NCBI RefSeq assembly: GCF_036566945.1
Contig: NZ_DATCVJ010000399.1
Coordinates: 1-38,809, forward strand
Source: Chitinophaga sp.
GTDB taxonomy: Bacteria > Bacteroidota > Bacteroidia > Chitinophagales > Chitinophagaceae
Reading direction: 5' to 3'
DNA length: 38,809 nucleotides
In this document: one piece after another, positions 10 to 23,437 of the stretch
How the letters are laid out: every line of letters begins with the position of its first letter
How positions within the stretch are numbered: position 1 is the first letter of the stretch
Translations under genes and position numbers: made by a program
The notes under the pieces: generated by a model
What the model was told of the DNA's origin: nothing
Databases searched by the model: none
The model's input: only the letters and a program-made list of their open reading frames with translations

Positions 10-51
10 AAAATCCTGAAAATCCTGAGAAAGACAATCGCCGAAGGCGAT
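10..51. repeat. REP-like element / hairpin downstream of the DUF1080 gene
   Basis: AAAATCCTG x2 direct repeat (10-27) followed by a perfect hairpin ATCGCC-GAA-GGCGAT (37-51). May be truncated by the window edge. Confidence 0.4.
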
Positions 52-71
52 CCCCTCCGCTACTCCGCGCA

Positions 72-833
72 CTACAAACGTTTCAGCATAATATGCCGGT
101 ATTCCACCTTCATCGGCGGACCAACGTGTACCTGTACGCCCAGTAAGCCTTTTGACTTGCCGTTAACTTTATCATTATCGGTTACATCACTCATCAGCAC
201 GTCGTTGATGTAGTGTTGTAAATGGTTACCTCTTACAATAAGATGGCATTTATTCCAGTCTTCACTTTTGATCAGTGTTTTCAGGGAGTCGCTGCTACCC
301 AAAGAACCGGTTACCAGGGCCGCCGTCCAGGCGTTGTTTTTGATGCCATCTCCCAAGGAGGTGGTAGGCGCCGGAATCGTGGTTTTTTGTCCGCGATAGG
401 CGAGGGTAGTGCGTCCACGTTCTTCGTAGTTCTGGCCGGTGTAGTTGTTGGCGCCATCAATATCTGCCTGATAGCCTTTGAGGGCATTGGGTACATTTTC
501 TACCATCACGCTGCGGTAGTTGATGCCACTGTTGCCGCCATTGGTAATTTTAAACTCACAGGTGAGTTCAAAGTTGGCTGGTTGCCCGCCTTGCCAGATC
601 AGGAAGGTATTGGTTTTGATCAGTGTTTGTGGCGTTACTTCGCCTACCAGGTTACCATTTTCTGCGCGCCAGTGAATACCATCACCTTCCCAGCCTTTTA
701 ATGTTTTACCATCAAAGATTTCTACGAAGCCACTATAGTTGCCCATGCTGCTGCTGGTTTGACAGCTGCTGGCGGAAAACAGCGTAGCCGCTGCCACCAG
801 CGGAATAAACAATGTGCGGGTTCTTTTCAGCAT
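72..833 (-). CDS. DUF1080 (3-keto-disaccharide hydrolase / hydratase family) lipoprotein
   Basis: Family motifs IFDGKTLKGW, GNSGI, GYQAD, WN, QVH. Start moved to ATG 833 (MLKRTRTLF..SASSC lipobox); the track's longer N-terminus runs through an intergenic repeat. Confidence 0.85.
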   Translation of the reverse strand: MLKRTRTLFIPLVAAATLFSASSCQTSSSMGNYSGFVEIFDGKTLKGWEGDGIHWRAENGNLVGEVTPQTLIKTNTFLIWQGGQPANFELTCEFKITNGGNSGINYRSVMVENVPNALKGYQADIDGANNYTGQNYEERGRTTLAYRGQKTTIPAPTTSLGDGIKNNAWTAALVTGSLGSSDSLKTLIKSEDWNKCHLIVRGNHLQHYINDVLMSDVTDNDKVNGKSKGLLGVQVHVGPPMKVEYRHIMLKRL

Positions 834-858
834 AGTTGTTATTTTAAGATGTTTATTT

Positions 859-967
859 TTCGTGTATCCACGGGAGCCGGGAATGTTTCGTATACCCGTT
901 GTAGATAGTTGTTTTCGTATATCCTCCGGAGACAGATACCTTCGTATATCCACCGGCGATAGTTATG
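859..967. repeat. Degenerate 27-bp tandem repeat, 4 copies (core TTCGTRTAYCC)
   Basis: Cores start at 859, 887, 914 and 941 (spacing 28, 27, 27). Copies 3 and 4 are ttcgtatatcctccggagacagatacc and ttcgtatatccaccggcgatagttatg. Confidence 0.75.
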
Positions 968-2114
968 CGGCGTTAGTGTCTTTCCAGGTGCCGCTGTTGG
1001 CCGAGTCCAGTACTGCCTGGCAAACTTTCTGTGTTTCGAACGCCTCTTTAAAGGTAGGAGAACAGGGCGCACCGGTTTCCAGGCTTAACAGGAAGTCAGC
1101 TACCTGGTGAACGAAAGAATGTTCATAGCCGATGCCCAGTCCCGGTACCCACCATTTATCCATGTAAGGCTGGTCGCCATCCGTTACATGGATGGAGCGC
1201 CATCCGCGCAGCGTAGAGTCGTCCGCGTTATCGAAGTATTCCAGGCGGTTTAAATCATGCAGATCCCAGCGGATAGATGCATGTTCGCCATTGATTTCGA
1301 ACGTATATAAGGCTTTATGTCCGCGGGCGTAACGGGTTGATTCAAAGAGTCCCAGTGAGCCGTTGTTGAAGCGGCACAGGAAGGAACAGGCGTCGTCGAT
1401 ATTCACTTTTTCTACTTTGCCGGTGAGCTGGTGCATGCGTTCTTTCACAAAGGTTTCCGTCATAGCGGTAACCGTGGAAATGCTGCCATTCAGCCATAAC
1501 GCGGTGTCGATGCAATGGGAGAGCAGATCACCCAACACGCCGGAACCGGCTACATCTGCATCCATACGCCACAAGCCTTCACCACCCTGGGGCAGGTTGG
1601 CGTTAATGGTCCAGTCCTGCAGGAAATTGGCGCGGTAGTGAAAAATGCGGCCCAGTTTTCCGGAGTCGATAATTTTTTTGGCTAAGGTAACTGCCGGTAA
1701 ACGGCGGTAGTTGTACCATACGGTATTGGGCACGCCTGCTTTTTCTATCGCCGTTACCATGCCTTCAGATTCTGCGAGGGTCCGTGCCAGCGGCTTCTCA
1801 CAAAGGATCATTTTACCAGCGGCGGCAGCAGCGATCGCAATTTCTGCGTGCATATCATTGGGCGTACAGATATCTACGGCATCTATATCTTCTCTGGCCA
1901 GTAGTGCTTTCCAGTCGGTTTCTACAGATTCATAGCCCCACTGATCTGCAAAAGCACGGGCTTTACTTTCGGTGCGGGAACATACTGCTTTCAGCACCGG
2001 CACATAGGCCAGTTGAGGGAAAAAATTCTTTACACGCAGGTACCCATTGGAATGGGTTCTGCCCATAAAGCCACAGCCTATTAATCCTATCCGCAGTTCT
2101 TTCTTTGGTGTCAT
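963..2114 (-). CDS. Gfo/Idh/MocA NAD(P)-dependent sugar dehydrogenase
   Basis: GLIGCGFMG Rossmann motif, [28 protein letters not shown] 2114 preferred over GTG 2123. Confidence 0.92.
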
Positions 2115-2143
2115 AGTTGTCACTGATTTTTTTATTGAAAAAT

Positions 2144-3184
2144 CTATTCCTGCCAGCCATGTAGCTCACGTACATTGATCATGGCGGCGAGGATATCATT
2201 CCAGGTTTTTGCCTGGGTCATCACGGCATTGGGAAACATACAGCCATCCCAGCAAATATGCCGGAAGGCTTTGGTGAGTTCGCCTTTGTTGTCGCGAAGC
2301 CAGTAGCCTGCATCCACGGCGATATTCAATTTGCCGTTGGGATCAGTCGCCAGGCAATGCCGGCCGGTTTTATCGTGCGAACCAGTACCATGTACGGTAC
2401 CGTCATTTTGTGCCACATGAAAATCTATCGTCCACGGACGCAGCGCATCCGTGAGGGTACGCAGTCCAGCTGCCAGCGCATCCCGGTCTTTCCAGTCAAA
2501 ATCAACCGGCAGGATCCGGTCTTCCGGACTGTTATACCCCAACAGGTACAGGAAGGTGTGCGACATATCGGCCTGGAAGCCAATATTAGGGCGGTCTACC
2601 GCCGATAGGGTATCTACCATCGCTTTCCAGCTATGCATGCCACCCCAGCAGATTTCGCCCTCTGCTGCGAGTTTTTCACCGTAGTCGGCGGCTACATCAC
2701 AAGCTTCGCGGAATGTTTGTGCAATCAGTTTCGTATTGCCGGCAGGGTCCTGCGCCCAGCTATCAGGAGTACAGGCTGAGTCGATGCGCACAATACCATT
2801 GGGACGAATTCCCAGTTCCCGCAGCCGTTGGCCTACATGGCAGGACTTGCGTACCTGCTCCACAAAACGCGCCCGCTCTTCTTTGCTGCCCATGGCGGAA
2901 CCACCACTGGGAGGCCAGATGGGCGCCACGAGACTTCCGATTTCCAGGTTATAGGAAGCTACTTTATCTACCAGTCTTTTGAGATCGTCGTCGGAACTAT
3001 CTACGGGTACATGCGGATCAAACAACCCGATGTCGATGCCGTCGAATTTAACACCGTTTACTTCTGCTGCTGCCGTCATTTCCAGCAGGGTGTCAAATGA
3101 AATGATGGGTTCGGAACCATCACCTTTTCCTACAATGCCCGGCCAGGTGGCATTGTGGAGCTTAGGATAATTATTATCTTTCAT
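2144..3184 (-). CDS. Sugar-phosphate isomerase/epimerase-like TIM barrel (AP_endonuc_2 / xylose-isomerase-like)
   Basis: Metal-site pattern LAAEGE..DMSH..FHVAQ..CWDG; 346 aa; sits in a sugar operon. Confidence 0.8.
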
Positions 3185-3208
3185 AACGCAGTTTTTTTAA
3201 ATCAGTAA

Positions 3209-4408
3209 TTACAGCACCAGGTCGGGGTTACCCGGACCGAAATGTTTCAGCATCACGATGGGATCAGTAGCAGAGGTATTCACAATAGTTACCCCTGCTG
3301 TAGCTGCTGCTTCGGTGATGAAAAACTCATCATTGGTCAGCTGTCCATAACGGATCAGCGCAGGTGTTTCTATATCCCATACGCCCATTTTACCATGGCC
3401 CTGCATGACGATGATACCGTAGGCAGCGGCGTCTTTGATCACCACCGTGGCGCCGGGAGCTACGGTCAATTCCTTGGCACTGAAGGCATCTGATTTATAG
3501 CATACCCAGTTCTCCGTATAGCCGTCACCGCTGGCTGCCAGTTTAGGCGGCATGAAACGGTTCTGGAACTGATTGGGGTCTACGTTCAGCTCCCAGTCTA
3601 TCACATCCATCAGCGCATCATAATCGCCGATGCTTTCTTTGGGCGTGCCGTTCCAGAGCAGTACTTCGGGTACGATCGCTTCGTTTACGAGCGACTGATA
3701 CATCGCGAAAACGTCGGAGGCTTTTTGTGGCTCGTAAGTGCATAAGCTACCGGGTGCATGCAACAGTCCCGGCGGTACATCCCAGCCGGTGCCGGGTTCC
3801 AGGCGGTAAGCCTGAGAGTAGTTGGTGATTTTGTTATCGCCTTTGCTGAAGTTCAAAAGGCATTCTTTGATCTGTTCTTTGGTGGTGCCGGGAGCAATAC
3901 CCATAAATGTATACGGGAAATCGCCACCGTGGTTATTCAGCTGCGGCGGAAAGTAGTAGGCTTCGGGTTTGCCGGCCTGTCCTATCAGCGCTGCTTTTTC
4001 ATCGTTGTGGTGAATGTGGTGGGGGAGCGGTCCCATATTGTCAAAGAATTTGGAATACATGGGCCATGCGCCGTATTGATCCCAGAGTCTTTTGCCGATT
4101 ACTTTATCTTTTAATTCGCTGATGGCATCTTTCAGCAATACCTGTTGGGTGCTGTTGCCATCTTCCACGACTACCATGCTTAAACCCTCATTTTCGCCTG
4201 TTAAAGGCCCGTTCTTCGCCGGAGTGGTAGAGGATAGCCAACGTTCGTCGATACCGCCTCTTTCGCCTCCAAGGACGTAATAATCATCCGGGTGTAATTT
4301 GATCCGCCGGCCTGGCACACAAAATGATCTGGGTACCCAGTTTGGTGCCAGTCGGAGAATCCCTTGTCCCTGTTCGAGTGCTTTTGCAGCTAAGCTTAAT
4401 TTTTCCAT
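3209..4408 (-). CDS. Class I mannose-6-phosphate isomerase-like cupin (substrate unknown)
   Basis: Cupin motifs KFFD..LPHHIH..KPEAYYF..VPPGLLHAPG..YEPQKASDV parallel the PMI-I layout. Confidence 0.7.
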   Translation of the reverse strand: MEKLSLAAKALEQGQGILRLAPNWVPRSFCVPGRRIKLHPDDYYVLGGERGGIDERWLSSTTPAKNGPLTGENEGLSMVVVEDGNSTQQVLLKDAISELKDKVIGKRLWDQYGAWPMYSKFFDNMGPLPHHIHHNDEKAALIGQAGKPEAYYFPPQLNNHGGDFPYTFMGIAPGTTKEQIKECLLNFSKGDNKITNYSQAYRLEPGTGWDVPPGLLHAPGSLCTYEPQKASDVFAMYQSLVNEAIVPEVLLWNGTPKESIGDYDALMDVIDWELNVDPNQFQNRFMPPKLAASGDGYTENWVCYKSDAFSAKELTVAPGATVVIKDAAAYGIIVMQGHGKMGVWDIETPALIRYGQLTNDEFFITEAAATAGVTIVNTSATDPIVMLKHFGPGNPDLVL

Positions 4409-4411
4409 GGC

Positions 4412-5491
4412 TTAATAATGTATGGATGTTGAAAGATCAGTTTTAAATTGTTGAATGGCGGCGGGTGTATGCAGCAGGTCTACCTGCAGTTCATAGTGTC
4501 GCCGTTCTCCCGGCGCCAGCTGTATCAGCGTACCTTCCTTACGGGCCAGCGCCTGTCCGGTGGGTGGATGAGTACCGGGTTCCAGTCCCATCACATATTC
4601 GCCCTTACCCCAGTGTTGCCAGTTGGTGAGCACCGGCAACTGCTGTTTTTTAAAACGCAGGGAAAGTGCCAGCCCTAATGCGGCATTATGTACGCCACAG
4701 GTACACCATCCGTTGGCGTTGGCGGCTACATCAATGATAGCAGCTTCTTCTCCGCCACCAGCATGGCTATCCAGCGGAGCTAAACATTTTTTGTAATTAT
4801 TATCCTGCCGGAAGATGTGATCCGGATTGCCTGCTCTGGAGCGCCAATCACCCTCCCAGCAGATATCTGCACCTTCGTTTACCAGCGGCCAGCCAAAGTT
4901 GAAATGGTACAGCAGCATATGCGGGGCGGTAGTATTGCCGCTGTTGATTACTTCATCATGCACGCGGATCCCCGCTTCGCCCAGTGTACCGGAAATAGTA
5001 CGTTTCAGCAGCAGCTGAGGCCCCAAGGCCTGTACCTGTCGCATGATGCCGGTAATGCTCATCTCCATCTGCCCATTCACCGGGTCGGGTTGGATGATGG
5101 AAACGATTTCAGCGGGCGTATTGCTGATAGGGCCATGCAAGCCGCGTTCCCCATACTCATCGGACTCCGGACCGCCTACATGTGACAAACCGCAGGTGGT
5201 CATTAATCCACCGCCAAAGGTTTGGAGCCAGTCCAAACCTTTGTCAGTTAATCTTTGCGGTGCGGTAACGCCACCATGACTAATCCATGCCAGGCTATGC
5301 TGATTGAAAAAAGCATCTGCAATATCCATCGCACGATCTATCACTACCTTATACCTCAGCCCTGCACCGGTATTGATCCAGGCAATGCGGGTGCCCCTGC
5401 CGGGGCCATTGTCCAGCACCGCCGTTTCTATTCCGCCCAGTTGTAAGTGGTTCGATAGCTTATGTTCCCATGCCTGTTTTTGTATAGCCAT
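4412..5491 (-). CDS. DUF4432 / aldose 1-epimerase (mutarotase-like) family protein
   Basis: DRAMDI, FGGGLMTTCGL, LHG, YHFNFGWP, GLEPGT motifs. Confidence 0.85.
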   Translation of the reverse strand: MAIQKQAWEHKLSNHLQLGGIETAVLDNGPGRGTRIAWINTGAGLRYKVVIDRAMDIADAFFNQHSLAWISHGGVTAPQRLTDKGLDWLQTFGGGLMTTCGLSHVGGPESDEYGERGLHGPISNTPAEIVSIIQPDPVNGQMEMSITGIMRQVQALGPQLLLKRTISGTLGEAGIRVHDEVINSGNTTAPHMLLYHFNFGWPLVNEGADICWEGDWRSRAGNPDHIFRQDNNYKKCLAPLDSHAGGGEEAAIIDVAANANGWCTCGVHNAALGLALSLRFKKQQLPVLTNWQHWGKGEYVMGLEPGTHPPTGQALARKEGTLIQLAPGERRHYELQVDLLHTPAAIQQFKTDLSTSIHY

Positions 5492-5524
5492 CCGCGCGTT
5501 ATTTATCTTCCGAAAAAAAAATAT

Positions 5525-8215
5525 TTATTTTTTTGCCTGCTGAGGTTTCGCAAATATTGCATCCTCTTTGTTACCACCTGCTTTCAGATAAGCCAGCAGA
5601 TCTCTCAGTTCGTCTTCATTCAAACGGTTGATCAATCCGGGCAGCATCACGGAAACAGTAGAGGTTTTAGTACCGGCTACTTCGCTCTTCTTCAACTCCC
5701 GTGTTTCGGTAGTAGCAAAAGGATTCTGGGAAATGATGTATTTATCATTGTCCTGGCTCACCAGACGACCAACTACAGAACCGCCATTCTTCAGTGAGAA
5801 AACAGTGGCGCCATACTGATCAGAAATGGTTTTGCTCGGATTAATGATGGCATCCAGGATATCTTTGCTGGAAAAACGTGTACCCAGCTGCGTTAGATCC
5901 GGACCAGCCACACCACCTTCACCGCGCATACCATGACAGGAGCTGCACAGGGAAGTGGCAAACATGGCCTTGCCCTGCTCAAAGTTGCGGTTGGTTAATC
6001 CACTGTCTACCACCTTCACGGCTTCTTCCAGTTTCCAGTTTCTGCCAGGTCCCTGTGGCTGCGCATATCCCTGGGCCAGGTTACCATTGCTGTTCAGCAA
6101 AGAATCACCTGATACCTGGTTGAAATGCGCAAACTCATTTTTCGGTACGTTGGCCAACGCGTTTTTACGCGCGGTGTTAATGAAGCCAATGAAACTATGT
6201 CCGCCTTTAAAGGTAAAGGCATGATAGAACCATTGGAAATATTGTTCCTGTAAAGCAGGTGTCCAGCCATTTTTAGCCTGACTTAAAACAGTGGCATACC
6301 AGGTTTGCTGTAATGGCGGCATCTTGGAAAGCATACCAGCTATATCCAGCCCGTACTGCGGATTACGCATAATCAGGTCGGCAGATTGCATCGCTGTTTT
6401 TTGGGCAGCGGTATCATCTTTTGCCACCGCCAGTAAGGCCATGGTTTTCTCTACTGCATTCGGTGCATCGAGGTATACCAGCACTTTGCTCAGTGACCTG
6501 TTGAGATCATTGGTGGCAGCCGGATACTGCGGATCAAGATACTTCGCTACCTGGGCAGATAAAGTGGCATCGGGTTTACCCATGCGCACAAATACCAGCT
6601 CAAAGGCACGGAGCAGATCAATCTGTTGGGAAGGCGACAACTGTGCATAGTTGATCGTCATGAGTTGTGGCAACAGCAGCTTCTTCACATCTTCCTTACC
6701 CTGACGGGCCAGCGCAATACTGCTCTGGATCAGTGTTTCAGGATCTTTCTCCTGCAATACTTTATTCTGCCACTGACTTACTGGTTGGTTTTCGATGGCG
6801 ATTCTTGCCGCAAAACGAACAAAGCGATCATCGTTTTTCAGGTAAGGCCATGCAAAATCAACGGCACCTGCTTTAGGCCCACCATGATACGCTTCCAGCT
6901 GTTTGCGGATGTTAGCACCTTCCGTAGGCGTAGTCGCAGCCAACGGTTCGTTGCTTTCTTTATTGTCTTTATAATATACACGATACAGATCTGATTCCAG
7001 TCTGCGGCCACCGGTCAGAAAATACAGCGCGCCATCAGGACCAATCACACCATCTGTCAACGGCAGCGGTGATCCGGAAAGGAATTCTTCTGCGCTGGCT
7101 TTGTAGGAAGCACCTTCAGGCTGCAAATGGATCGCGTAAATAATACCAAAGCTCCAGTCAAATGCAAATAATGATTTGCGGTATTTTTCCGGGAAACGCG
7201 CTTTGCCGCCGTAGATCAGGTTAGTAGGAGAGCCCTGGCCTATGTTTAATAACGGAGGTAAATTATCCGGATAGGCGGGAGACCATTTCTCCGTACCCGG
7301 GCGCCAGCCGTATTCACTGCCACTGGTTACCTGGCAAATACGGGTAGGACGATACCAGGGGGTGCCAAAATCCCATTCCATATCTGAATCATAGGTGAAC
7401 ATGTCACCCTGATCATTAAACGTAAGGTCAAAAGGATTACGGAAGCCAGAGCTGATCAGTTCCCAGTTGGAACCGGTAGAATCAATATGCGCAATCCATC
7501 CGCCATGTGTATTCACCGTATTGTCGTGACCGTTAGGGTCTTTGATCAACGGCAGAATGTTGTCGATGTTCGTGGAGAGCGGATACCGGTAGGTATTCAT
7601 CTCCGGAATTTTGGTAAAATTACCGGCAATCACATAGATGGATTTTCCGTCGGGTGATAACACAATGCTGTGTGGGCCGTGTTCACCTTCTCCATCCAAT
7701 GCTTTCAGCTGTGTGATTTTGTCAAATTGATCATCGCCATCCGTGTCCTGCAAACGGTATAAACCGCTGCCTTTGGTGAAGCGGTCATCACTGTTATGGT
7801 TCACCATTACATACAAACTGTTGAACGCATACAGTAATCCCTGGGCATAACCCATAGACACTTTCTGGCTGGAAGTATCGTTGCCGATATTCAGCTTTTC
7901 AATTTTCAGTTTAGACGAATCTTCCCCTACAGCGGGCAGCTGCAGCCGGTAAAGGAACCCATACTGATCAGACACAATCATACGGCCCTTGTTGTCGAAA
8001 GTCATGGATACCCAGGACCCCTGCTTGTTATCGCCGGGACTGTATAATCGCTCTGCCTTGAAATTATCAGGTAATTTCAACGCATCGATTTTCGGATTTC
8101 CGGTTCCTTTGTCTTTCGACGTTGAGTCGTTTCCGTTATTGCAGGCCACACCCGTTATTAAAACGGTGGAAATGATTGCCAACAGCCTGAGTGGTCTTTT
8201 TCTTAACGCGGTCAT
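5525..8215 (-). CDS. PVC-type membrane-bound dehydrogenase-like lipoprotein (beta-propeller + HEAT-like repeats + C-terminal c-type heme domain)
   Basis: Lipobox ITGVAC; propeller motifs GEHGPH, GFRNPFD, DSDMEWD; CxxCH (CSSCH at 5933-5947), GPDL and a distal Met (SVMLPGL). Confidence 0.8.
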   Translation of the reverse strand: MTALRKRPLRLLAIISTVLITGVACNNGNDSTSKDKGTGNPKIDALKLPDNFKAERLYSPGDNKQGSWVSMTFDNKGRMIVSDQYGFLYRLQLPAVGEDSSKLKIEKLNIGNDTSSQKVSMGYAQGLLYAFNSLYVMVNHNSDDRFTKGSGLYRLQDTDGDDQFDKITQLKALDGEGEHGPHSIVLSPDGKSIYVIAGNFTKIPEMNTYRYPLSTNIDNILPLIKDPNGHDNTVNTHGGWIAHIDSTGSNWELISSGFRNPFDLTFNDQGDMFTYDSDMEWDFGTPWYRPTRICQVTSGSEYGWRPGTEKWSPAYPDNLPPLLNIGQGSPTNLIYGGKARFPEKYRKSLFAFDWSFGIIYAIHLQPEGASYKASAEEFLSGSPLPLTDGVIGPDGALYFLTGGRRLESDLYRVYYKDNKESNEPLAATTPTEGANIRKQLEAYHGGPKAGAVDFAWPYLKNDDRFVRFAARIAIENQPVSQWQNKVLQEKDPETLIQSSIALARQGKEDVKKLLLPQLMTINYAQLSPSQQIDLLRAFELVFVRMGKPDATLSAQVAKYLDPQYPAATNDLNRSLSKVLVYLDAPNAVEKTMALLAVAKDDTAAQKTAMQSADLIMRNPQYGLDIAGMLSKMPPLQQTWYATVLSQAKNGWTPALQEQYFQWFYHAFTFKGGHSFIGFINTARKNALANVPKNEFAHFNQVSGDSLLNSNGNLAQGYAQPQGPGRNWKLEEAVKVVDSGLTNRNFEQGKAMFATSLCSSCHGMRGEGGVAGPDLTQLGTRFSSKDILDAIINPSKTISDQYGATVFSLKNGGSVVGRLVSQDNDKYIISQNPFATTETRELKKSEVAGTKTSTVSVMLPGLINRLNEDELRDLLAYLKAGGNKEDAIFAKPQQAKK

Positions 8216-8260
8216 AATATATTCTTAAAATGTTCCTGAGATGATACAATTGGCTTGGGT

Positions 8261-8292
8261 CGTTCACTATAGCTGTAGTAATATAGTGAACG
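8261..8292. other. Perfect 11-bp inverted repeat between susD and the heme-protein gene
   Basis: CGTTCACTATA-N10-TATAGTGAACG; T-rich tail only on the + (antisense) side. Confidence 0.55.
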
Positions 8293-8315
8293 TTTCCACT
8301 TTTTTTCTATTTTTT

Positions 8316-9797
8316 TTACCAGCCGGTATTTTGTTCAAATCCATTCAATCTAATTTCTCTTTCAGGAATCGGATAAAGTAACTGATATGCCTGTATGTTG
8401 TAAGATGCCGGGCTGAGTCTGGTCAAACGCTTTTTTTCTTCGATACCATGCGCAGTCATAACAGATACGGCTTTGCCGGTACGGAGCAGCTGGTACCAGC
8501 GTTGGTCTTCAAACGCCAGCTCTACCCGTTGTTCATGAAATACGGTATCGCGGAAGGCCGATTGATTTAATGCAGGCAGCGGATCTAAACCAGCGCGCAC
8601 ACGTACCGGGTTGATATATTGTAATGGATCGCCATTGCCCGTTTCGTTGATCGCTTCTGCCAGCATCAGCAATACCTGTGAGTAGCGGTATACCGGCCAG
8701 TTTTCATTGGCACGGCCATCGAGCGCATACGGCGGATGATAGAATTTTTTGATGAGCGGTAATTTACCACCAAAGGCAACGGATTCTGCAAAAGCGGTGT
8801 TGGTAGGACTATCATACATAAAAATAGACGCATCCTTTCTTTTGTCTTTCGGCTCATACGCATTCACAATACTGGGAGTAGGCATATTGCAACCACCCAG
8901 GGTACCATTAAAACCGGTCAGGTCTTTTTTACCGTTACGCGGACCAAAAACAAAAATAAAATTGCTGCTTTCTGTTTCCATACCGGCGTTATACTGCACG
9001 GAGAAAACAGATTCTGTATTATTCTTTTTAGCAGGATCAAAATTATCTGCATAATTGTCCACCAGCGAATAATTCAAGCCTACCACCTGTTGCAGGGTGG
9101 TTACCGCTTTAGGATAATCTTTCATGGTCATGTACACATCACCGAGCAGTGTTAAAGCGGCGCCTTTGGTGGCTCTGCCCATATCGCTGGCGCCATAGGT
9201 GGCAGGCAGGCTGGCGGCTGCATCCGTAGCATCTGCAATGATCTGCGCATATACTTCCGCTACACTGGCTTTTTTAGGCGTGGAAGCCTGCTCCGGGCTG
9301 GCCACTTCTTTCACCAATAGTGGCACACCGCCGAAAAGGCGCACGAGGTGAAAGTAGTACAGGGCCCGGAGGAATTTAGCTTCACCGGCGTATTGTTTTT
9401 TAGTGGCTTCGTTGGCAAATGGCACCGCATCAATGCGCGTAAGGATCACATTGGATTGCTGGATGTTGTAATACAATTGTGACCAGGTATTATTTATATA
9501 GTTATTGCTGTTAGTGGTCAGGAATTCATCAATTTCTTCCCGCTGCTGCGCTCCACGGTCACTTTCATCATATTGGTAATTGGTATTGTCTGCTCTCATT
9601 TCAGACATGGCCCAGTAGTCACTGGTATACAGCGTTTGTAATTGGCCATAGGCGCCATTTACGGCACGTAATATCTGCGCTTCGGTGGTGTAATAATTAG
9701 ACCCGCTGGAAAAAGAGCTGGGTTGTACATCCAGCATACTCGTACATCCATTCAGTGCGATCGCTAAAAGCGCGATTAAAGGTATTTTCGTTTTCAT
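8316..9797 (-). CDS. susD: SusD/RagB family outer-membrane lipoprotein
   Basis: Lipobox LNGC; GEAKFLRALYYFHLVRLFGGVP, YRYSQVLLMLAEA, EQRVELAFEDQRW; C-terminal PIP..QNTGW. Confidence 0.95.
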   Translation of the reverse strand: MKTKIPLIALLAIALNGCTSMLDVQPSSFSSGSNYYTTEAQILRAVNGAYGQLQTLYTSDYWAMSEMRADNTNYQYDESDRGAQQREEIDEFLTTNSNNYINNTWSQLYYNIQQSNVILTRIDAVPFANEATKKQYAGEAKFLRALYYFHLVRLFGGVPLLVKEVASPEQASTPKKASVAEVYAQIIADATDAAASLPATYGASDMGRATKGAALTLLGDVYMTMKDYPKAVTTLQQVVGLNYSLVDNYADNFDPAKKNNTESVFSVQYNAGMETESSNFIFVFGPRNGKKDLTGFNGTLGGCNMPTPSIVNAYEPKDKRKDASIFMYDSPTNTAFAESVAFGGKLPLIKKFYHPPYALDGRANENWPVYRYSQVLLMLAEAINETGNGDPLQYINPVRVRAGLDPLPALNQSAFRDTVFHEQRVELAFEDQRWYQLLRTGKAVSVMTAHGIEEKKRLTRLSPASYNIQAYQLLYPIPEREIRLNGFEQNTGW

Positions 9798-9821
9798 GTT
9801 GCTATTCTTTTAGGAACTGAA

Positions 9822-12800
9822 TTAAAAGGAGAGGTTGGCGCCCAGTGAATAAATTCTTGGAACGGGATAACTGGAATAATCGATACCCGGTACCAATGCG
9901 CCACTACCGCCTTTACCCATGTAGTTGGTGACTTCCGGATTACCACTGTAGTTGGTAAACAGGATCGCATTTTGTACACTCAGGTATATCCTGGCACTTT
10001 GCACAAATCCGAATTTAGGAAGCGAATAACCCAGTGTAATATTTTTCACCCATGCATAGTTGTTTTTCTCTACAGTGAGTGAACTTACGTCTCTGTACAT
10101 CACCCTGCCACGGCCGGAACCATTGGTGGTAGGCACTTTTCCGTTGCCAGGATTAGACTCTGATCTCCACCTGTCAGCCACATCTTTTCTTACGTTGAAA
10201 ACACCATCTATATTACCATTGTAATCGTTGGTGGCATGTAAACGATCAGCTCCCATGGAACCTACCACCAATACACGCAGATCAAATTTTTTGTAGTTCA
10301 GAATATTGGTTAAGCCCCAGTTGAAGTCCGGATAAGGATTACCAATGATGGCAAAGTCTTCACGCGGATTAATCACGCCATTGCCATTAATATCCTTGAA
10401 ACGGATATTGCCTGGAATCGCACCCGGGAAAGCCGGTCCTTTATCTACTTCTGCCTGGTTCTGATAAATACCGTCAAATACATATCCGTACAGCATCGCC
10501 AGCGGTTTTCCTACCATGCTTACGTTGGTGGGATTGCCTTCACTGGAGTTGCCGGAGTAGATAGGCGCATTATCTGTTCCTAACTGCAGCACTTTGTTAC
10601 GGTTAAAGGAAATGTTGAAGTTGGTGGTCCAGGTAAATGATTTGGATTCGATGTTGCGGGAAGAAATACCAATTTCCAATCCCTTGTTTTCCATGTCACC
10701 CTTGTTTTGTGTTACGGTGGAGAAGCCACTGGATTGTGGTACTTCCACGTTTAACAACAAGTCCTGGGTATTTCTTTTATAGGCGTCGATGGTCAGATAA
10801 ACGCGGTCTTTCCACAGTCCAACGTCAACGCCTATATTTAATTCCCGCATTTTTTCCCAACCCAATGCAGGGTTGCCCAATGAATTCATGACACGACCAC
10901 CGGCGAGTGAGCCGCCTAATACATAATCACTGGTACCAATGTTACTCATGTAAGAGTAGTTACCAATATTAAAGTTACCGGAGAAACCATAGGAAGCCCT
11001 TAATTTCAGGTCACTGAAAAGACGGGAAGATTTCATGAAGTCCTCCTGTGAAATGCGCCATCCCAGTGCTACAGAAGGGAAAGTACCCCAGCGGTTGTCT
11101 GGTCCGAAACGGGAAGAACCATCGCTTCTTACAGTAGCCGTTACCAGGTATTTGTCTTTGTACGCATAGTTGATTCTCGCCAGGTAAGACAACAAAGCCC
11201 ATTCTGTTTTATCGGTACCGCCAGTGATGGTAGCGGCGCCGTTTAATGTTTTGATATCATCATCGGGGTAGTTGGCGCCATTGAAACCGGCAAATTCTTC
11301 TTTTTGTGATTGTATGCTGTAACCGAGTAATCCGGTGAAAGCGTGACCACTATGTGTATTATACTGATAGGTCAGCGTATTTTCGTTTAGCCAGTTCAGG
11401 TAGTTACCACTGTTGTAGCCACCGACAGGGATGCTGGGCGGCGCGGTATTGGTGCTGCCAATAGTAGAAGGAACAAAATATTCCCCGCTACCTTCCTGGT
11501 AGTCTACGTTAAAAGTAGATTTGAACTTCAGGTTCTTTATAATTTCATATTCTCCATAAGTATTAAAAAGAATACGGGTACTTTTGGATTTGTTGGTAAC
11601 ATCATTCAGGAACATCACCGGATTGGGAAGTCCGAAGGTACCGGGGCTCTGGATATAGGCATTTAAGCTACCATTTGGTTTATAGATGGGTTCAATCGGA
11701 CTGGCGATGCCAAAGTAGCTGCCACGGCCTTCTCCGGAGGTGTTGCCTTTGCGGGTTGTATAGGAAGGGGCTATGTTAAAGCCTACTTTGAACCTGTCTG
11801 AAAGATTCGCATCTACGTTGGCTCTTACAGAAAATCTTTTGTAACCCGAGTTGATAATAACACCATCCTGGTTATAATAACCGGCAGAGATATACGTTCT
11901 GATTTTTTCCGTACCGCCGCTTACATTCAGGTTGATATCCTGCATGGGCGCCACGCGGGTAATGGCATCAAACCAGTTGGTGCCTTCACCGATCAGTTCC
12001 GGGTGACGATATATTTCCGGAATGTCCGCATCCGTAGGTTCGCGGTGTTCGGTAAAGCGGATATTATCTTCTATGGATTCTTTTCTGAACTGGGCAAACT
12101 CTTGGCCGTTCATAAGGTCAGGACGTCCTTTCTGTGGAATCTGTTGCAGGCCGTAGCTGGCGGAGAGCTGCACGGTTGGAATACCGGAGCTGCCCCTTTT
12201 GGTAGTAATGAGTACTACGCCGTTGGCGCCTCTGGAACCATAGATAGCGGTGGCGGATGCATCTTTCAATACCGCCATAGATTCTATATCCTGTGGATTG
12301 ATGGCATTCATCGGATCAGATACCTGGTCGGAAGAAGACGCCAGTGGATAACCATCCACTACATACAGGGGCTGGCTACCGGCACCTACTGCACCAATAC
12401 CACGTACCTGTACCTGCGGACCGCCACCCGGAATACCGTTGGAGGTACTTACCTGAATACCTGCGATCTGCCCGGCCAACGCCTGGTCAGGACCCGCTAC
12501 CGGCATATCTTTCACATTTTTCATAGACACAATACCCACAGATCCCGTTACATCCTTTTTTTGCTGGGTACCATAACCTACTACCACTACCTGGTTCAGC
12601 AATTTATTGCTGGACTCCAGTTGTACACTGATTTTGGTACGACTACCAACATGAATGGTTTTGGTCACATACCCGATAAAACTAAAAACAAGTGAATCTG
12701 TGCTGCCGGCGGAAATAGTATATCTGCCATTGGCATCACTAAATGCGCCCTGGCTACTTCCCTTTACACCAATGGTAACGCTGGGAAGGGCAGAGCCGGC

Positions 12801-12938
12801 AGCGGCATCAGTTATTTGCCCGGTAATCGTAGTTTTTTGTGCATAGGCAATTGAGCAAATAAAGAGGAGTAATAAGGTGACTCCATAACGTGCAAGACAG
12901 GCATATCCTCTACGACAAAGGACGTAAACTTTAATCAT
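9822..12938 (-). CDS. susC: SusC/RagA TonB-dependent transporter
   Basis: VVVVGYG, PLYVVDG, LKDASATAIYGSRGANGVVLITTKRG, RSDGSSRFG, C-terminal F. Start placed at ATG 12938 before the signal peptide (..AYA/Q). Confidence 0.95.
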   Translation of the reverse strand: MIKVYVLCRRGYACLARYGVTLLLLFICSIAYAQKTTITGQITDAAAGSALPSVTIGVKGSSQGAFSDANGRYTISAGSTDSLVFSFIGYVTKTIHVGSRTKISVQLESSNKLLNQVVVVGYGTQQKKDVTGSVGIVSMKNVKDMPVAGPDQALAGQIAGIQVSTSNGIPGGGPQVQVRGIGAVGAGSQPLYVVDGYPLASSSDQVSDPMNAINPQDIESMAVLKDASATAIYGSRGANGVVLITTKRGSSGIPTVQLSASYGLQQIPQKGRPDLMNGQEFAQFRKESIEDNIRFTEHREPTDADIPEIYRHPELIGEGTNWFDAITRVAPMQDINLNVSGGTEKIRTYISAGYYNQDGVIINSGYKRFSVRANVDANLSDRFKVGFNIAPSYTTRKGNTSGEGRGSYFGIASPIEPIYKPNGSLNAYIQSPGTFGLPNPVMFLNDVTNKSKSTRILFNTYGEYEIIKNLKFKSTFNVDYQEGSGEYFVPSTIGSTNTAPPSIPVGGYNSGNYLNWLNENTLTYQYNTHSGHAFTGLLGYSIQSQKEEFAGFNGANYPDDDIKTLNGAATITGGTDKTEWALLSYLARINYAYKDKYLVTATVRSDGSSRFGPDNRWGTFPSVALGWRISQEDFMKSSRLFSDLKLRASYGFSGNFNIGNYSYMSNIGTSDYVLGGSLAGGRVMNSLGNPALGWEKMRELNIGVDVGLWKDRVYLTIDAYKRNTQDLLLNVEVPQSSGFSTVTQNKGDMENKGLEIGISSRNIESKSFTWTTNFNISFNRNKVLQLGTDNAPIYSGNSSEGNPTNVSMVGKPLAMLYGYVFDGIYQNQAEVDKGPAFPGAIPGNIRFKDINGNGVINPREDFAIIGNPYPDFNWGLTNILNYKKFDLRVLVVGSMGADRLHATNDYNGNIDGVFNVRKDVADRWRSESNPGNGKVPTTNGSGRGRVMYRDVSSLTVEKNNYAWVKNITLGYSLPKFGFVQSARIYLSVQNAILFTNYSGNPEVTNYMGKGGSGALVPGIDYSSYPVPRIYSLGANLSF

Positions 12939-13009
12939 AACGAGTGGAATTAGAGTGATGAAACGGCGATTCTTTACGGAAATAAATTTAGGTGAAGAAT
13001 AATACATTC

Positions 13010-13047
13010 CTGTCCTGTTGCGTCCTGTACTGTCCTGCACTGTCCTG
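13010..13047 (-). promoter_or_regulatory. Four 10-bp-phased direct repeats (CAGGACAG on the minus strand), putative operator upstream of susC
   Basis: CTGTCCTG at 13010, 13030 and 13040, with variant GCGTCCTG at 13020. Confidence 0.6.
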
Positions 13048-13179
13048 TTTGAAGGCCGTTGATCCTTGTCTGTATCCTTTGATAATCAGCTATTGCGAAT
13101 GCCAGGAAAAAGATGTTATTTTCCGCTACCTTACCGATGGCATTTCGCCGACGGCTATACGTTATTTAAATTCTGATCC

Positions 13180-13926
13180 ATGAAAATGAAAAAATTAAGC
13201 TGGCCGTTAATGGCTTTGCTCGGCCTGTTGGCCACTTCGGCTTTTGCACAGGATAACACCGATGCAGCAGCTAAGAAAAAGCAACAAGAGGAACTGATGA
13301 AACAGGACTGGGCCTGCCTGAAATGTTTCCAGGACGATAATGCGAAAGTAGAAGCCCCTAAAGCCGGCGAAAAACGCGTGGTATTTATGGGGAACTCTAT
13401 TACTATAGGCTGGAGCCACCTGAACCCAGAGTTCTTTGCCGGTAAACCTTATATCAACAGAGGTATTAGCGGACAAACTACCCCGCAGATGCTGATTCGT
13501 TTCCGTCCCGACGTGATTGACCTGCATCCCGCCGTAGTGGTGATCCTGGCCGGTACCAACGATATTGCGTGTAATACCGGTTATACACCTGTTCCCACCA
13601 TTTTCGGCAACATCGTGTCTATGGCGGAACTGGCGAAGGCGAATGGAATCAAAGTAGTACTCTCTTCTGTACTGCCCGTATACGATTACCCTTGGCGTCC
13701 GGGATTGGATCCTGTTACCAAAATTGCAGACCTGAACCAGCGCATTAAAGAATACGCGGCTAAAAACGGCTTCGTATATCTCGACTACTACTCCGCGATG
13801 GTGGATGAGCAAAAAGGCCTGCAGAAGGCACTCTGTACCGATGGCGTACATCCTAACAAGGAAGGTTACCTCGTGATGGGGCCACTGGCAGAAAAAGCAA
13901 TTGCTGCTGCGTTGAAAAAGAAATAA
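13180..13926 (+). CDS. SGNH/GDSL hydrolase (probable carbohydrate acetylesterase), secreted
   Basis: Signal peptide (AFA/Q); blocks GNSIT, NRGISG, GTND, DGVH. Confidence 0.92.
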   Translation: MKMKKLSWPLMALLGLLATSAFAQDNTDAAAKKKQQEELMKQDWACLKCFQDDNAKVEAPKAGEKRVVFMGNSITIGWSHLNPEFFAGKPYINRGISGQTTPQMLIRFRPDVIDLHPAVVVILAGTNDIACNTGYTPVPTIFGNIVSMAELAKANGIKVVLSSVLPVYDYPWRPGLDPVTKIADLNQRIKEYAAKNGFVYLDYYSAMVDEQKGLQKALCTDGVHPNKEGYLVMGPLAEKAIAAALKKK

Positions 13927-14091
13927 GGCGATTTATTATTTTGAAAAAGTCATCCGGGAACAGCCGTTGCCGCCGGTAAATGAGAAGTAGTACAGTACAT
14001 TACATAATTTCACTGCGACAATATGTTATTTTTTTGTTGTAGTGTTTTCTGGTTTGAATATTTTCCCTTAATTTCATTACTCACCAAAGAA

Positions 14092-14151
14092 AAGGAGGTA
14101 TTCATGCTATCTACAGAATATTCATGGACACCTAAGGTTAATTTAGTTTAA
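14092..14151 (+). other. Candidate 15-aa small ORF (14104-14151, MLSTEYSWTPKVNLV) or sRNA carrying a perfect Shine-Dalgarno
   Basis: AAGGAGGT at 14092-14099, ATG 14104, TAA 14149-14151; followed by two hairpins, one a terminator. Confidence 0.3.
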
Positions 14152-14193
14152 CCCAGGCGGCTCCATCAAAGAATCTGTTAACGCTTTGGCGTT

Positions 14194-14226
14194 AAAGGCA
14201 TCCTGGCATAGCCGGGATGCCTTTTT
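14194..14226 (+). terminator. Rho-independent terminator
   Basis: AAAGGCATCCTGGC-ATA-GCCGGGATGCCTTT plus T-tract. Preceded by hairpin TTAACGC-TTTG-GCGTTAA (14178-14195). Confidence 0.8.
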
Positions 14227-14275
14227 CATGGGAGCGGGTATCACGCCGTCTTTTTTCTTGTATAATAATATTTTA

Positions 14276-14283
14276 TATCTTTG
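14276..14283 (+). promoter_or_regulatory. Bacteroidota housekeeping -7 element for the exonuclease gene
   Basis: TATCTTTG matches TAnnTTTG, about 47 nt upstream of ATG 14331. Confidence 0.6.
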
Positions 14284-14330
14284 TAAGACGAATAAAAAAT
14301 TGTTTAACCCAAAAAATCAAACTACAAATC

Positions 14331-14849
14331 ATGGCTTTTATTATGGTGGACGTGGAAAGCGACGGGCCTATACCCGGCGATTTTTCTATGATCTCATTCG
14401 GCGCTGTACTCGTGAACGAACAGCTCAACCAAACTTTTTACGGTCAGCTGAAACCCGTTTCCGATAAGTATATCCCGGAAGCATTGGCGGTATCGGGTCA
14501 TACCCGTGAAGAAACATTGACCTTTGAAGATCCCGCAACGGTGATGTTGAATTTTAAGAAATGGATAGCAACGGTTTCTAAAGACCGACCCATTTTTATC
14601 AGCGACAACAACGGTTTCGACTGGATGTTTATATGCTGGTACTTTCATCATTTTCTTGGCGAAAATCCTTTTGGCTTCAGCTCTCAGAACCTCGGCAGCT
14701 TATACAAAGGGATGATGAAAGATACGTTTACAACGTTCAAGCACCTACGAAAAACAAAGCATACCCATCATCCGGTCGATGATGCGAAAGGTAATGCAGA
14801 AGCACTGCTGACAATGAAAAGGGAATTAGGACTCAAGGTGAAATTGTAG
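14331..14849 (+). CDS. DEDDh 3'-5' exoribonuclease (Rv2179c / RNase AS-like)
   Basis: MVDVESDGP, DNNGFDW, HHPVDDA motifs. Start at ATG 14331; the track's extension overlaps the terminator and promoter. Confidence 0.85.
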   Translation: MAFIMVDVESDGPIPGDFSMISFGAVLVNEQLNQTFYGQLKPVSDKYIPEALAVSGHTREETLTFEDPATVMLNFKKWIATVSKDRPIFISDNNGFDWMFICWYFHHFLGENPFGFSSQNLGSLYKGMMKDTFTTFKHLRKTKHTHHPVDDAKGNAEALLTMKRELGLKVKL

Positions 14850-14850
14850 A

Positions 14851-14879
14851 GACAAGCAGCGGTATCGACGCTGCTTGTC
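14851..14879. terminator. Hairpin between convergent genes (probable bidirectional terminator)
   Basis: GACAAGCAGCG-N7-CGCTGCTTGTC, a perfect 11-bp stem with weak U tails. Confidence 0.6.
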
Positions 14880-14887
14880 CTTCATCG

Positions 14888-17242: not shown

Positions 17243-17274
17243 GGAATGCATTTTATGGGCCGGTACAGGAAGGC

Positions 17275-18708: not shown

Positions 18709-18790
18709 GGCTCAGTTGATATTAGTCACGTGGAATTAGCTGTCAGCAACTTTTCCCGACAATGATAGTAATTTAATTCTACAATTGCTG

Positions 18791-18822
18791 CAGGATATTG
18801 GAAGCATGACAGTCCATGACAG
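18791..18822 (+). promoter_or_regulatory. 10-bp-phased CATGACAG direct repeat, putative GntR operator upstream of rhaT
   Basis: CATGACAG at 18805 and 18815; related CAGGATAT at 18791. Confidence 0.55.
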
Positions 18823-18889
18823 TTTAAAAATATACATGCTTTATTTTTATGAAACATTAGTTTTCCACGTTACAAATTACGATGTCATT

Positions 18890-19945: not shown

Positions 19946-19987
19946 CCCGCAGCATTATCGCAATTAAAAACGTTAAAATTATATAGT

Positions 19988-23423: not shown

Positions 23424-23437
23424 TCTTAAAAATATTT

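Follow-up and report, generated by a model that had tools for sequence, protein, structure and literature searches.

The stretch of DNA analysed here (the window) comprises 38,809 nucleotides (nt) of contig NZ_DATCVJ010000399.1 from a Chitinophaga species. Between positions 72 and 12938 its minus strand carries eight co-oriented genes in a row, which form one tight operon. A SusC/SusD pair is joined there to a haem-c propeller lipoprotein, a DUF1080 lipoprotein and four further enzymes, among them a cupin with the fold of the phosphomannose isomerases (PMI). From the first to the last gene the operon reads as follows (aa, amino acids):

9822-12938, minus strand: SusC-type TonB-dependent outer-membrane transporter, first gene of the operon (TIGR04056, 869 bits at a cut-off of 368; Plug and CarbopepD_reg_2 domains)
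8316-9797, minus strand: SusD-family outer-membrane lipoprotein (SusD_RagB, E 1.3e-31; SusD-like_3, E 4.6e-27; lipoprotein signal ...ALNGC)
5525-8215, minus strand: haem-c propeller lipoprotein, 896 aa (TIGR02603, 95.1 bits; Cytochrom_C, E 1.7e-8)
4412-5491, minus strand: DUF4432 protein, predicted cytoplasmic, with a mutarotase-like fold (PF14486, E 7e-98)
3209-4408, minus strand: PMI-fold bicupin, 399 aa, predicted cytoplasmic (AlphaFold and Foldseek)
2144-3184, minus strand: TIM346, a divergent xylose-isomerase-like TIM barrel of 346 aa, predicted cytoplasmic (AP_endonuc_2, E 8.8e-14)
963-2123, minus strand: Gfo386, an oxidoreductase of the Gfo/Idh/MocA family dependent on an NAD-type (nicotinamide adenine dinucleotide) cofactor, predicted cytoplasmic (NF052479 LevoglcsnDh, 341.3 bits)
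72-833, minus strand: DUF1080 exported lipoprotein, last gene of the operon (PF06439 3keto-disac_hyd, E 2.6e-35, full length)

With starts that are consistent with the signal peptides, the intergenic gaps from SusC to DUF1080 measure 24, 100, 33, 3, 24, 20 and 129 nt. The open reading frames (ORFs) reach out to 13040, where that of SusC is open to a GTG; the signal-peptide Met at 12938 is Met35 of this longer frame. Similarly, the DUF1080 frame is open to a GTG at 953 and its lipoprotein signal begins at the Met at 833. Adjacent SusC and SusD genes with a gap of 24 nt are the pair by which a polysaccharide utilisation locus (PUL) is recognised. An STN domain was not found in this SusC by Pfam or NCBIfam. 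The same two collections gave no match to a glycoside hydrolase (GH) or polysaccharide lyase (PL) family in any of the eight proteins, and genes for a sugar kinase and an aldolase are absent from the operon. A previous reading of the letters and their ORFs (the sequence-only reading) had described eight co-oriented genes of these families without a recognisable GH or PL. Coordinates and families were confirmed by ORFs, Pfam and NCBIfam and, for the cupin, by AlphaFold and Foldseek, and the lack of GH and PL families was borne out for all eight proteins.

The distribution of the cluster was followed in a scan of species genomes (one genome per species), which gave at least 600 pattern matches. 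The cupin is encoded in at least 592 species genomes (592 of the 600 pattern matches among those listed). The best 80 loci, which come from different Bacteroidota orders, were fetched and searched with the window proteins by tblastn. Since the genes recur together in these loci, their grouping is far beyond chance. Forty-six loci are complete, with at least 8 kb on either side of the cupin gene; at thresholds of 35% identity and half the query length, TIM346 was present in 46 of them, Gfo386 in 45, DUF4432 and DUF1080 in 43 each and the haem protein in 36. All six enzymes occurred together in 31 and all eight genes in 13, with SusC in 17 and SusD in 18, counts from which divergent SusCD pairs would escape at these thresholds. 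The recurrence in other genomes that a joint pathway presupposes, as in the sequence-only reading, was therefore found. In the 80 loci DUF4432, cupin, TIM346 and Gfo386 form a near-fixed block, which the haem protein and DUF1080 adjoin in varying order. Median identities to the window proteins are highest for the cupin (81%), Gfo386 (80%) and TIM346 (76%), followed by DUF4432 (63%), the haem protein (62%), DUF1080 (61%), SusC (42%) and SusD (39%).

Of 301 evenly sampled Bacteroidota genomes, six, including the centre genome of the sample, carried a cupin orthologue of at least 74% identity, so that the cluster is confined to part of the Bacteroidota; six more carried a cupin paralogue at 37-41% identity. 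The host lineages of the operon are aerobic soil and freshwater Bacteroidota. In one metatranscriptome (X13) contigs mostly in the 90-95% and <90% identity bands cover the region from DUF1080 to the haem protein, and single contigs span the DUF1080/Gfo386, cupin/DUF4432 and DUF4432/haem-protein junctions. SusC and SusD were without contig cover, a gap to which no meaning is attached. These contigs are a relative's, DNA carry-over is possible and a contig across two genes is not equal to one transcript; they were not counted as expression.

The translated proteins of the operon fall into two compartments. Lipoprotein signals are present in SusD, in the haem protein (...ITGVAC) and in DUF1080 (...FSASSC), and DUF4432, the cupin, TIM346 and Gfo386 begin straight at the folded domain without a signal peptide. 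Among the enzymes, only the haem protein and DUF1080 are thus predicted to be exported, the other four to be cytoplasmic. A crude lipobox pattern applied to the orthologues of the 80 loci was found in 24 of 51 haem proteins and 30 of 58 DUF1080 proteins, compared to none of 63 Gfo, 68 TIM, 66 DUF4432 and 80 cupin proteins; as the start codons were uncurated, these counts are lower bounds. A looser hydrophobic-stretch pattern was discarded as an export signal in Gfo proteins, where it fired on the Rossmann motif (62 of 63) and gave a false signal.

In the haem protein a six-bladed beta-propeller (residues ~45-415) is followed by helical repeats of HEAT-like type (~430-710), and the chain closes with a mono-haem cytochrome c domain whose haem site, CSSCH, spans residues 757-761. 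Its AlphaFold model, based on an alignment of 25 sequences, reached a predicted local distance difference test (pLDDT) value of 77. Foldseek placed the soluble glucose and aldose dehydrogenases dependent on pyrroloquinoline quinone (PQQ) at the top (2ism, 1cq1, 7cdy, 3a9g, 2g8s, 3das), with the fungal AA12 enzymes next; over all these matches the TM-score normalised to the target (TMt) was 0.55-0.74 and E ~1e-8 to 1e-10. A profile search of the PDB likewise returned 2ism first, with a weak E of 0.095, and this alignment sets GFRNP of the haem protein on GHRNP and SGSEFGW on PGGNYGW. Residues C757, C760, H761, H179, H182 and N260 are invariant in the 25 sequences, and H179 is presumably the counterpart of the catalytic histidine of PQQ dehydrogenases. 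The C-terminus matches TIGR02603 with 95.1 bits at a cut-off of 68.15, and the N-terminus reaches 74 bits against TIGR02604 ('PVC-type'), below the cut-off of 122.2. DUF7133 weakly matches 16 of 18 members scanned, one of them the paralogue, and Pfam GSDH (PF07995; E 0.028) matches two of the 18. With these structural resemblances we regard the haem protein as a predicted periplasmic sugar dehydrogenase that would pass electrons to the respiratory chain.

One protein of the same architecture has been reported. Passages of PMC5342196 describe Lac161_ORF7 from Verrucomicrobia (TIGR02604, HEAT, cytochrome c), which was purified, released glucose from lactose with a Km of 1.8 mM and enabled growth on lactose in S. 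meliloti, not in E. coli. Beyond Lac161_ORF7, no other sugar-directed activity of the TIGR02604-HEAT-cytochrome architecture was found in the literature searched.

The cupin matched no Pfam and no NCBIfam family. Its AlphaFold model (pLDDT 94.5) is matched by the type I phosphomannose isomerases 1zx5, 5zuw, 1qwr, 3h1w and 1pmi in Foldseek with E values from 1e-13 to 6e-18, over the whole chain, with a TM-score normalised to the query (TMq) of ~0.6 and an identity of 10-16%. By sequence the match to 1zx5 is weak (E 0.16). Judged on 24 sequences down to 30% identity, E55, W57, K120, H131, H133, K147, E149, Y151, H217 and E226 are invariant, and with them a plausible set of metal ligands, H131/H133/E149/H217. 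The spacing within K-x-E and H(+9)E is that of K132/E134 and H255/E264 in the Salmonella enzyme (numbers taken from PDB titles). As the operon lacks a kinase, a non-phosphorylated substrate of the cupin is likely. The PMI fold, the kinase-less operon and the occurrence of paralogues beside FGGY kinases (see below) together suggest a metal-dependent isomerase of a free, non-phosphorylated sugar.

Close relatives of the cupin number more than 8000 in the protein collection. Among the best 120, from Chitinophaga, Larkinella, Flavihumibacter, Agriterribacter and others, identity nowhere falls below 81%, and the labels read 'hypothetical', 'cupin' or 'class I mannose-6-phosphate isomerase'. The wider family holds 1745 representatives at E up to 1e-3, with named members from Stappia, Eubacteriales and Planctomycetota. 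Distant paralogues of 35-41% identity in other Bacteroidota (loci L082-L087) adjoin ABC importers and, in the manner of free-sugar isomerases, FGGY kinases. In the paralogue operons of L082-L087, genes of GH10-like, GH2, GH92 and alpha-amylase type, a PhyH dioxygenase and an aldo/keto reductase lie nearby, and in two of these loci a corrinoid methyltransferase-like set (MtaB, B12-binding, URO-D-like) stands beside the cupin paralogue, a gene neighbourhood that hints at the use of methylated sugars. A 36%-identical cupin on a Planctomycetota metagenome contig (L081) lies near heparinase II/III-like, sulfatase, DUF1080, AP_endonuc_2 TIM barrel, FG-GAP and GH141-like genes. The association of cupin, DUF1080 and TIM barrel therefore recurs in a sulfated-glycan context; this is one locus with a neighbourhood unlike the present cluster, about which it says little.

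In TIM346 the AP_endonuc_2 match covers residues 46-218 only and no NCBIfam family was matched. No solved relative was found below E 0.5 in the PDB, with the single sequence as well as with a profile of 22 sequences. E175, E177, D206, H209, H256, D261 and D313 are invariant in 22 orthologues, an acidic and histidine set typical of metal-dependent TIM barrels. The ESM Atlas names TIM346 a 'sugar phosphate isomerase/epimerase'. The protein is predicted to be a keto-sugar epimerase, eliminase or hydratase. Gfo386 has NF052479 as its best model, at 341.3 bits and under the LgdA equivalog cut-off of 650, and matches 4h3v best in the PDB (E 6e-97), followed by the levoglucosan dehydrogenase 6a3f (E 2e-81). 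It carries the motifs GCGFMG at 16, EKP at 109 and SHC at 202. The family models of BT_2158 and BT_2159 score 33-36 bits, and NF058561 scores 32.9 bits at a cut-off of 750. By these sequence comparisons Gfo386 is assigned to the NAD-type branch of levoglucosan dehydrogenase, a C3 dehydrogenase.

The DUF4432 protein matches PF14486 with 327.6 bits at a cut-off of 32.5, its residues 31-338 lying on profile positions 1-303 of 304, and the PDB entry 3ty1 ('hypothetical aldose 1-epimerase', mutarotase-like) with E 8.6e-24. For DUF1080, PF06439 gives 122.6 bits at a cut-off of 26.8, the PDB entry 4jqt is matched with E 3e-17, and a Q-x-H near the C-terminus as well as an N-S-G are invariant in 18 sequences. 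In BT2157, Gln273 and His275 contact the bound sugar according to passages of 10.1101/2024.03.25.586180. The DUF1080 lipoprotein is predicted to be a 3-keto-glycoside lyase or a keto-glycal hydratase. The sequence-only reading had also envisaged that the enzymes might belong to an already characterised monosaccharide pathway; no model of such a pathway was matched at its curated cut-off in NCBIfam.

Relatives of the operon contain additional genes, of which the 12 largest recurrent clusters (each in at least five of the 80 loci) and eight smaller ones were scanned. No glycoside hydrolase family was found among them. A ThuA-like cluster of 292 aa occurs in 22 of the 80 loci, its L006 member with a signal peptide, and a second haem-propeller protein in 14. 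A ketose 3-epimerase-like TIM barrel, cytoplasmic in L006-type loci, occurs in 17 and matches D-tagatose/D-psicose 3-epimerases (E 3e-35) and 6wn6, '3-keto-D-glucoside 4-epimerase' (E 3e-14), in the PDB. In L006 (11261-16238), as well as in L017, L024, L025 and L049 of the Chitinophagaceae, the cupin gene is separated from that of TIM346 by three inserted genes, which encode an exported 1057-aa protein (GDSL-like N-terminus, DUF7133 propeller, HEAT, cytochrome c), the ThuA-like protein and this accessory TIM barrel. Spirosoma-type loci carry an ABC importer of the ribose/allose type directly after the Gfo gene (ATPase in 10, binding protein in seven and permease in six of the 80 loci), the binding protein being nearest to ribose and D-allose binders.

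The published oxidative route to glycoside cleavage, as set out in passages of 10.1101/2024.03.25.586180, opens with oxidation at C3; 1,2-elimination then removes the aglycone, after which the 2-hydroxy-3-keto-glycal is hydrated and a reduction follows. The same passages assign beta-lyase activity to the TIM barrel, alpha-lyase and hydratase activity to DUF1080, the oxidation to a Gfo enzyme exported by twin-arginine translocation (Tat) and the reduction to a cytosolic Gfo enzyme. Parts of PMC8121099 and PMC9007349 describe periplasmic 3-dehydrogenases that depend on cytochrome c and occur next to DUF1080, together with epimerases and a 3-ketohexose reductase in the cytoplasm.

Our preferred interpretation, held tentatively and at slightly less than an even chance, is a GH-free operon working in two compartments, with oxidation linked to respiration and DUF1080-dependent elimination and/or hydration in the periplasm, and salvage of a keto-hexose in the cytoplasm. 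SusCD would bring a glycoside or oligosaccharide into the periplasm. There the propeller domain would oxidise a hydroxyl group of the sugar, probably at C3, and its own cytochrome c would pass the electrons to the aerobic respiratory chain, so that the haem protein would stand in for the Tat-exported NAD enzyme of Bacteroides or the flavoprotein of LacABC. The DUF1080 lipoprotein would eliminate the aglycone, hydrate the keto-glycal or do both, as BT2157/AL2. The freed 3-keto-hexose, of monosaccharide size, would enter the cytoplasm; compare the ribose-type ABC importer of the Spirosoma-type loci. DUF4432 may then interconvert the ring forms of the 3-keto-hexose, the LgdA-like Gfo386 may reduce its C3 keto group with NADH, and TIM346 and the cupin may epimerise or isomerise the product to a common hexose, for example glucose or fructose.

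Several points weigh against this interpretation. Gene content, compartments, folds and conservation are the direct observations, and every catalytic step is inferred from them. The canonical pathway is without a cupin or a DUF4432 protein, and the roles given to them above are guesses. The haem protein is absent within 8-10 kb in 10 of the 46 complete loci, in which the cytoplasmic core is kept. The scores of its propeller lie under the curated cut-offs of TIGR02604, DUF7133 and GSDH, and the known enzymes with such a propeller act on C1 of aldoses and are not known to oxidise C3. The gene pqqC (TIGR02111) was found in none of five cluster genomes and also in none of 14 control genomes, which is evidence in neither direction. 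An inner-membrane transporter is not in the operon of the window. DUF1080 reaches 26 bits, in its N-terminal half only, against the BT2157-type chains 8tda, 8rr2 and 9fbe, and its family also includes an endo-glycanase according to parts of PMC9007349. Finally, the passages of PMC5342196 on Lac161_ORF7 describe the release of glucose and leave the electron acceptor unnamed.

The absence of a nearby haem protein from those ten loci is in line with a cytoplasmic cycle similar to that of the Lgd enzymes, which we consider unlikely. A small glycoside or anhydro-sugar would be imported intact, Gfo386 would oxidise its C3 and TIM346 would eliminate (like LgdB1), DUF4432 and/or the cupin would hydrate or isomerise the enone, and the same Gfo would then reduce the product. 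The haem protein and DUF1080 would merely pre-process a larger precursor or serve another purpose. Gfo386 is indeed closest to levoglucosan dehydrogenase (341 bits; 6a3f, E 2e-81), the Gfo and TIM genes are adjacent and both products cytoplasmic, as in the lgd clusters described in parts of PMC7676230 and PMC10066097, and the core proteins are the most conserved, with median identities of 76-81% for cupin, TIM346 and Gfo386. Yet Gfo386 scores far under the 650 bits required of an LgdA equivalog, neither an NCBIfam family nor a solved chain is matched by TIM346, and a second Gfo (LgdC) is absent. DUF1080 accompanies the core in 43 of the 46 loci, which argues for a periplasmic step in the same pathway, and the binding protein of the associated ABC importer is of a monosaccharide (ribose/allose) type.

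Such a binding protein, nearest to ribose and D-allose binders, would suit an interconversion of rare sugars or monosaccharides without any glycosidic cleavage, which appears less likely still. Here a free hexose, ketohexose or polyol would be converted to fructose or glucose, with redox epimerisation at C3 by Gfo386, aldose-ketose isomerisation by the cupin, epimerisation beside the carbonyl by TIM346 and interconversion of anomers or ring forms by DUF4432; the haem protein would be an aldose dehydrogenase of the periplasm with that sugar as its substrate. The aldose-ketose isomerase fold of the cupin with its H-x-H, K-x-E, H and E pattern, the FGGY kinases beside its paralogues and the ketose 3-epimerase-like barrel beside TIM346 in L006-type loci (a cluster in 17 of the 80) are in accordance with this, and enzymes of the soluble glucose dehydrogenase (sGDH) fold oxidise free aldoses. 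SusCD pairs normally serve oligosaccharides and glycans, not free monosaccharides, and such a pair is present in 13 of the 46 complete loci. The DUF1080 lipoprotein would be without a role, although 43 of 46 loci keep it; the operon lacks a sugar kinase and an aldolase, and no NCBIfam pathway model reached its curated cut-off. The haem-c propeller protein could, at a very low probability, itself be a non-classical glycosidase of a new family, with a cytochrome of structural or regulatory function and with the other operon products processing the released sugars. This would agree with Lac161_ORF7, of like architecture, which released glucose from lactose (Km 1.8 mM); that is a single report with a coupled glucose-oxidase assay, and the cosmid also bore a GH-like DUF377 enzyme (passages of PMC5342196). 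The fold, the invariant histidine and the RNP motif point to a dehydrogenase, and the invariant CxxCH is hard to explain in a hydrolase.

The two-compartment interpretation can be taken further: the haem protein might be the founder of a new class of respiratory-coupled periplasmic glycoside dehydrogenases that replace the glycosidases across a whole set of PULs in aerobic Bacteroidota, with cupin, TIM346 and DUF4432 forming a novel cytoplasmic pathway by which 3-keto-hexoses become ordinary hexoses. This extended proposal we regard as rather improbable. What is established to date about cleavage by oxidation and elimination comes from gut anaerobes, whose NAD enzymes are without an obvious route for re-oxidation. 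If the two-compartment interpretation is true, aerobic soil and freshwater Bacteroidota could run the same chemistry with the electrons going to respiration, and a glycosidase-free PUL would be energetically productive. Substrate prediction based on carbohydrate-active enzymes would see no GH or PL in this PUL. The cupin and TIM346, with median identities of 76-81% across orders and no sequence-detectable solved relative, are candidates for enzyme discovery; a characterised member of either family was not found in the searches made. The PVC-type haem-binding family, large and almost unstudied, would become directly testable.

Three further features of the window concern the ends and the control of the operon:

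36-52, minus strand: terminator-like hairpin, probable end of the operon, 20 nt past the DUF1080 stop codon
13012-13047, minus strand: four CAGGAC direct repeats in a 10-bp phase, candidate operator or leader, just upstream of the SusC start
17677-18708, minus strand: regulator with a GntR-type helix-turn-helix and a periplasmic-binding-protein-like part, 91% identical to the regulator of locus L002

For the left flank the nearest relative, Chitinophaga polysaccharea (locus L001), was consulted. Downstream of DUF1080 its genome has a 5'-nucleotidase gene, then PNPOx-like and bPH genes, and further on, in convergent orientation, another locus that contains a SusD, an esterase and a beta-helix protein. 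The counts of the promoter and terminator scan were not above chance, and the hairpin at 36-52 is suggestive by its position alone. Because of this hairpin and the unrelated genes in the closest genome DUF1080 is probably the last gene of the operon. The sequence-only reading had considered an extension beyond the left edge of the window, which is unsupported, and the classical GH genes that this reading had thought of there were not found after the operon in L001.

Upstream of SusC the CAGGAC repeat pattern gives three overlapping matches in the window, with 0.01 expected by chance. The repeats lie within ~115 nt (about 12940-13055) that are nearly identical in three Chitinophaga species (window, L001 and L004); DNA farther upstream is not conserved among them. 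Among the fetched loci the pattern precedes SusC in L001, L004 and L005 only. Direct repeats are not the usual operator of GntR-type regulators. Homologues of the regulator occur in five of the 80 fetched loci; it directly precedes SusC on the same strand in L002 (Chitinophaga vietnamensis) and likewise directly precedes SusC in L005. In the window it lies 4.7 kb from SusC, with three genes between (13180-17251: a GDSL esterase, an Rv2179c-like exoribonuclease and a MacB/FtsX permease). Judging from these homologues, the GntR-type protein is probably the regulator of the operon, displaced by three inserted genes. It stands back to back with a rhamnose locus, divergent from rhaT, and may be mistaken for the rhamnose regulator or double as such.

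This complete L-rhamnose utilisation locus occupies 18785-30919 on the plus strand and contains a RhaT symporter, a bifunctional rhamnulose-1-phosphate aldolase/dehydrogenase (NF006191, 1405 bits), a RhaI-type isomerase, an FGGY kinase and a BD-FAE esterase, as well as GH106 and a GH78-like rhamnosidase. An ORF of 224 aa without a Pfam family (30974-31648, minus strand) separates the rhamnosidase genes from a MarR regulator. At 32710-34068 on the minus strand, 20 kb from the operon, a Gfo/Idh/MocA protein with a Tat signal partially matches the BT_2158 model (151 bits, cut-off 750). It adjoins an ECF sigma factor, a FecR anti-sigma factor and a SusC with a weak STN match (34146-38809), and this region may belong to another oxidative glycan locus, distinct from the first, that continues beyond the right end of the window.

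No paper on the eight-gene cluster was found in the literature searched, most subscription journals lying outside that search. The closest systems are BT2156-BT2160 and AL1-AL5, with which the operon shares an exported DUF1080 lipoprotein, a Gfo/Idh/MocA protein and an AP_endonuc_2 TIM barrel, as far as described in parts of 10.1101/2024.03.25.586180 and PMC8121099. A Koshland glycosidase is present in neither. The sequence-only reading had taken the three families for the oxidation, elimination and hydration route of BT2156-2159. The families stand, with an LgdA-like Gfo, an AP_endonuc_2 TIM barrel and DUF1080, whereas the periplasmic trio is not reproduced, because Gfo386 and TIM346 lack an export signal. 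At the level of sequence the likeness is limited as well, with the low bit score of DUF1080 against BT2157-type chains noted above and a TIM346 that matches no solved lyase. Similar to BT2159/AL4, the cytoplasmic Gfo386 could serve as a 3-ketohexose reductase. In contrast to BT2158/AL3, the operon is without a Tat- or Sec-exported Gfo dehydrogenase, its sole exported candidate oxidant being the haem-c propeller protein, and in contrast to BT2156/AL1, TIM346 is cytoplasmic and unrelated in sequence to the solved TIM-barrel chains. The operon's DUF1080 is exported, belongs to the same Pfam family as BT2157/AL2 and keeps the Q-x-H, at a remote sequence similarity. DUF4432 and the PMI-fold cupin are extra here, with SusCD upstream.

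With the Lgd pathway the operon shares, according to parts of PMC7676230 and PMC10066097, the theme of C3 oxidation followed by elimination, hydration and reduction, and a cytoplasmic Gfo that is nearest to LgdA and adjoins a TIM barrel. It differs in the sub-cut-off score of Gfo386 (341 vs 650), the lack of an LgdC-like second Gfo, the extra exported proteins and SusCD, and TIM346 (346 aa) matches no solved chain by sequence. The haem-c protein, the mutarotase-like DUF4432 and the non-canonical cupin, which the sequence-only reading had singled out, are indeed additions absent from the published BT/AL and Lgd systems. LacABC of Caulobacter, and of Pedobacter and Echinicola, resembles the operon in its periplasmic oxidation coupled to a c-type cytochrome, its DUF1080 partner and the cytoplasmic epimerases and reductase proposed for the 3-keto-hexose (parts of PMC9007349 and PMC8121099). 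A LacA-like gene of the flavin-dependent (FAD) GMC family was not found in the window or in the recurrent clusters scanned, and the cytochrome domain of the operon is fused to the propeller and helical repeats.

Lac161_ORF7 shows the same three-part architecture as the haem protein; it comes from another phylum and neighbourhood, is a reported hydrolase and is likened by architecture, not by sequence (passages of PMC5342196). PQQ-dependent sGDH and AA12 enzymes (1cq1, 2ism, 2g8s, 3das, 6h7t, 6jt5) share the six-bladed propeller, and the RNP of the haem protein aligns with HRNP of 2ism. The identity is 10-18%, and the haem protein differs by its lipoprotein anchor, its HEAT-like repeats and a cytochrome of the c-type instead of the b-type. 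Fungal AA12 pyranose dehydrogenase is also fused to a cytochrome domain. Type I PMIs (1pmi, 3h1w, 1qwr, 1zx5) and the cupin agree in the fold of the whole chain and in the K-x-E and H(+9)E spacing; the cupin has H-x-H in place of Q-x-H and is without a Pfam or NCBIfam PMI match. In YcjQRS of E. coli a Gfo/Idh/MocA protein works with a TIM barrel by which a 3-keto sugar is epimerised at the position adjoining the carbonyl. This system (D-glucoside 3-dehydrogenase and 3-keto-D-glucoside 4-epimerase; 6wn6) sets a precedent for the proposed function of TIM346, although 6wn6 is matched by the accessory TIM barrel of L006-type loci and not by TIM346. Overall, we would class the operon, which is strongly conserved, among the variants of the oxidative (3-keto) glycoside pathway, with a candidate oxidant that is unprecedented there and an added cytoplasmic module of four enzymes.

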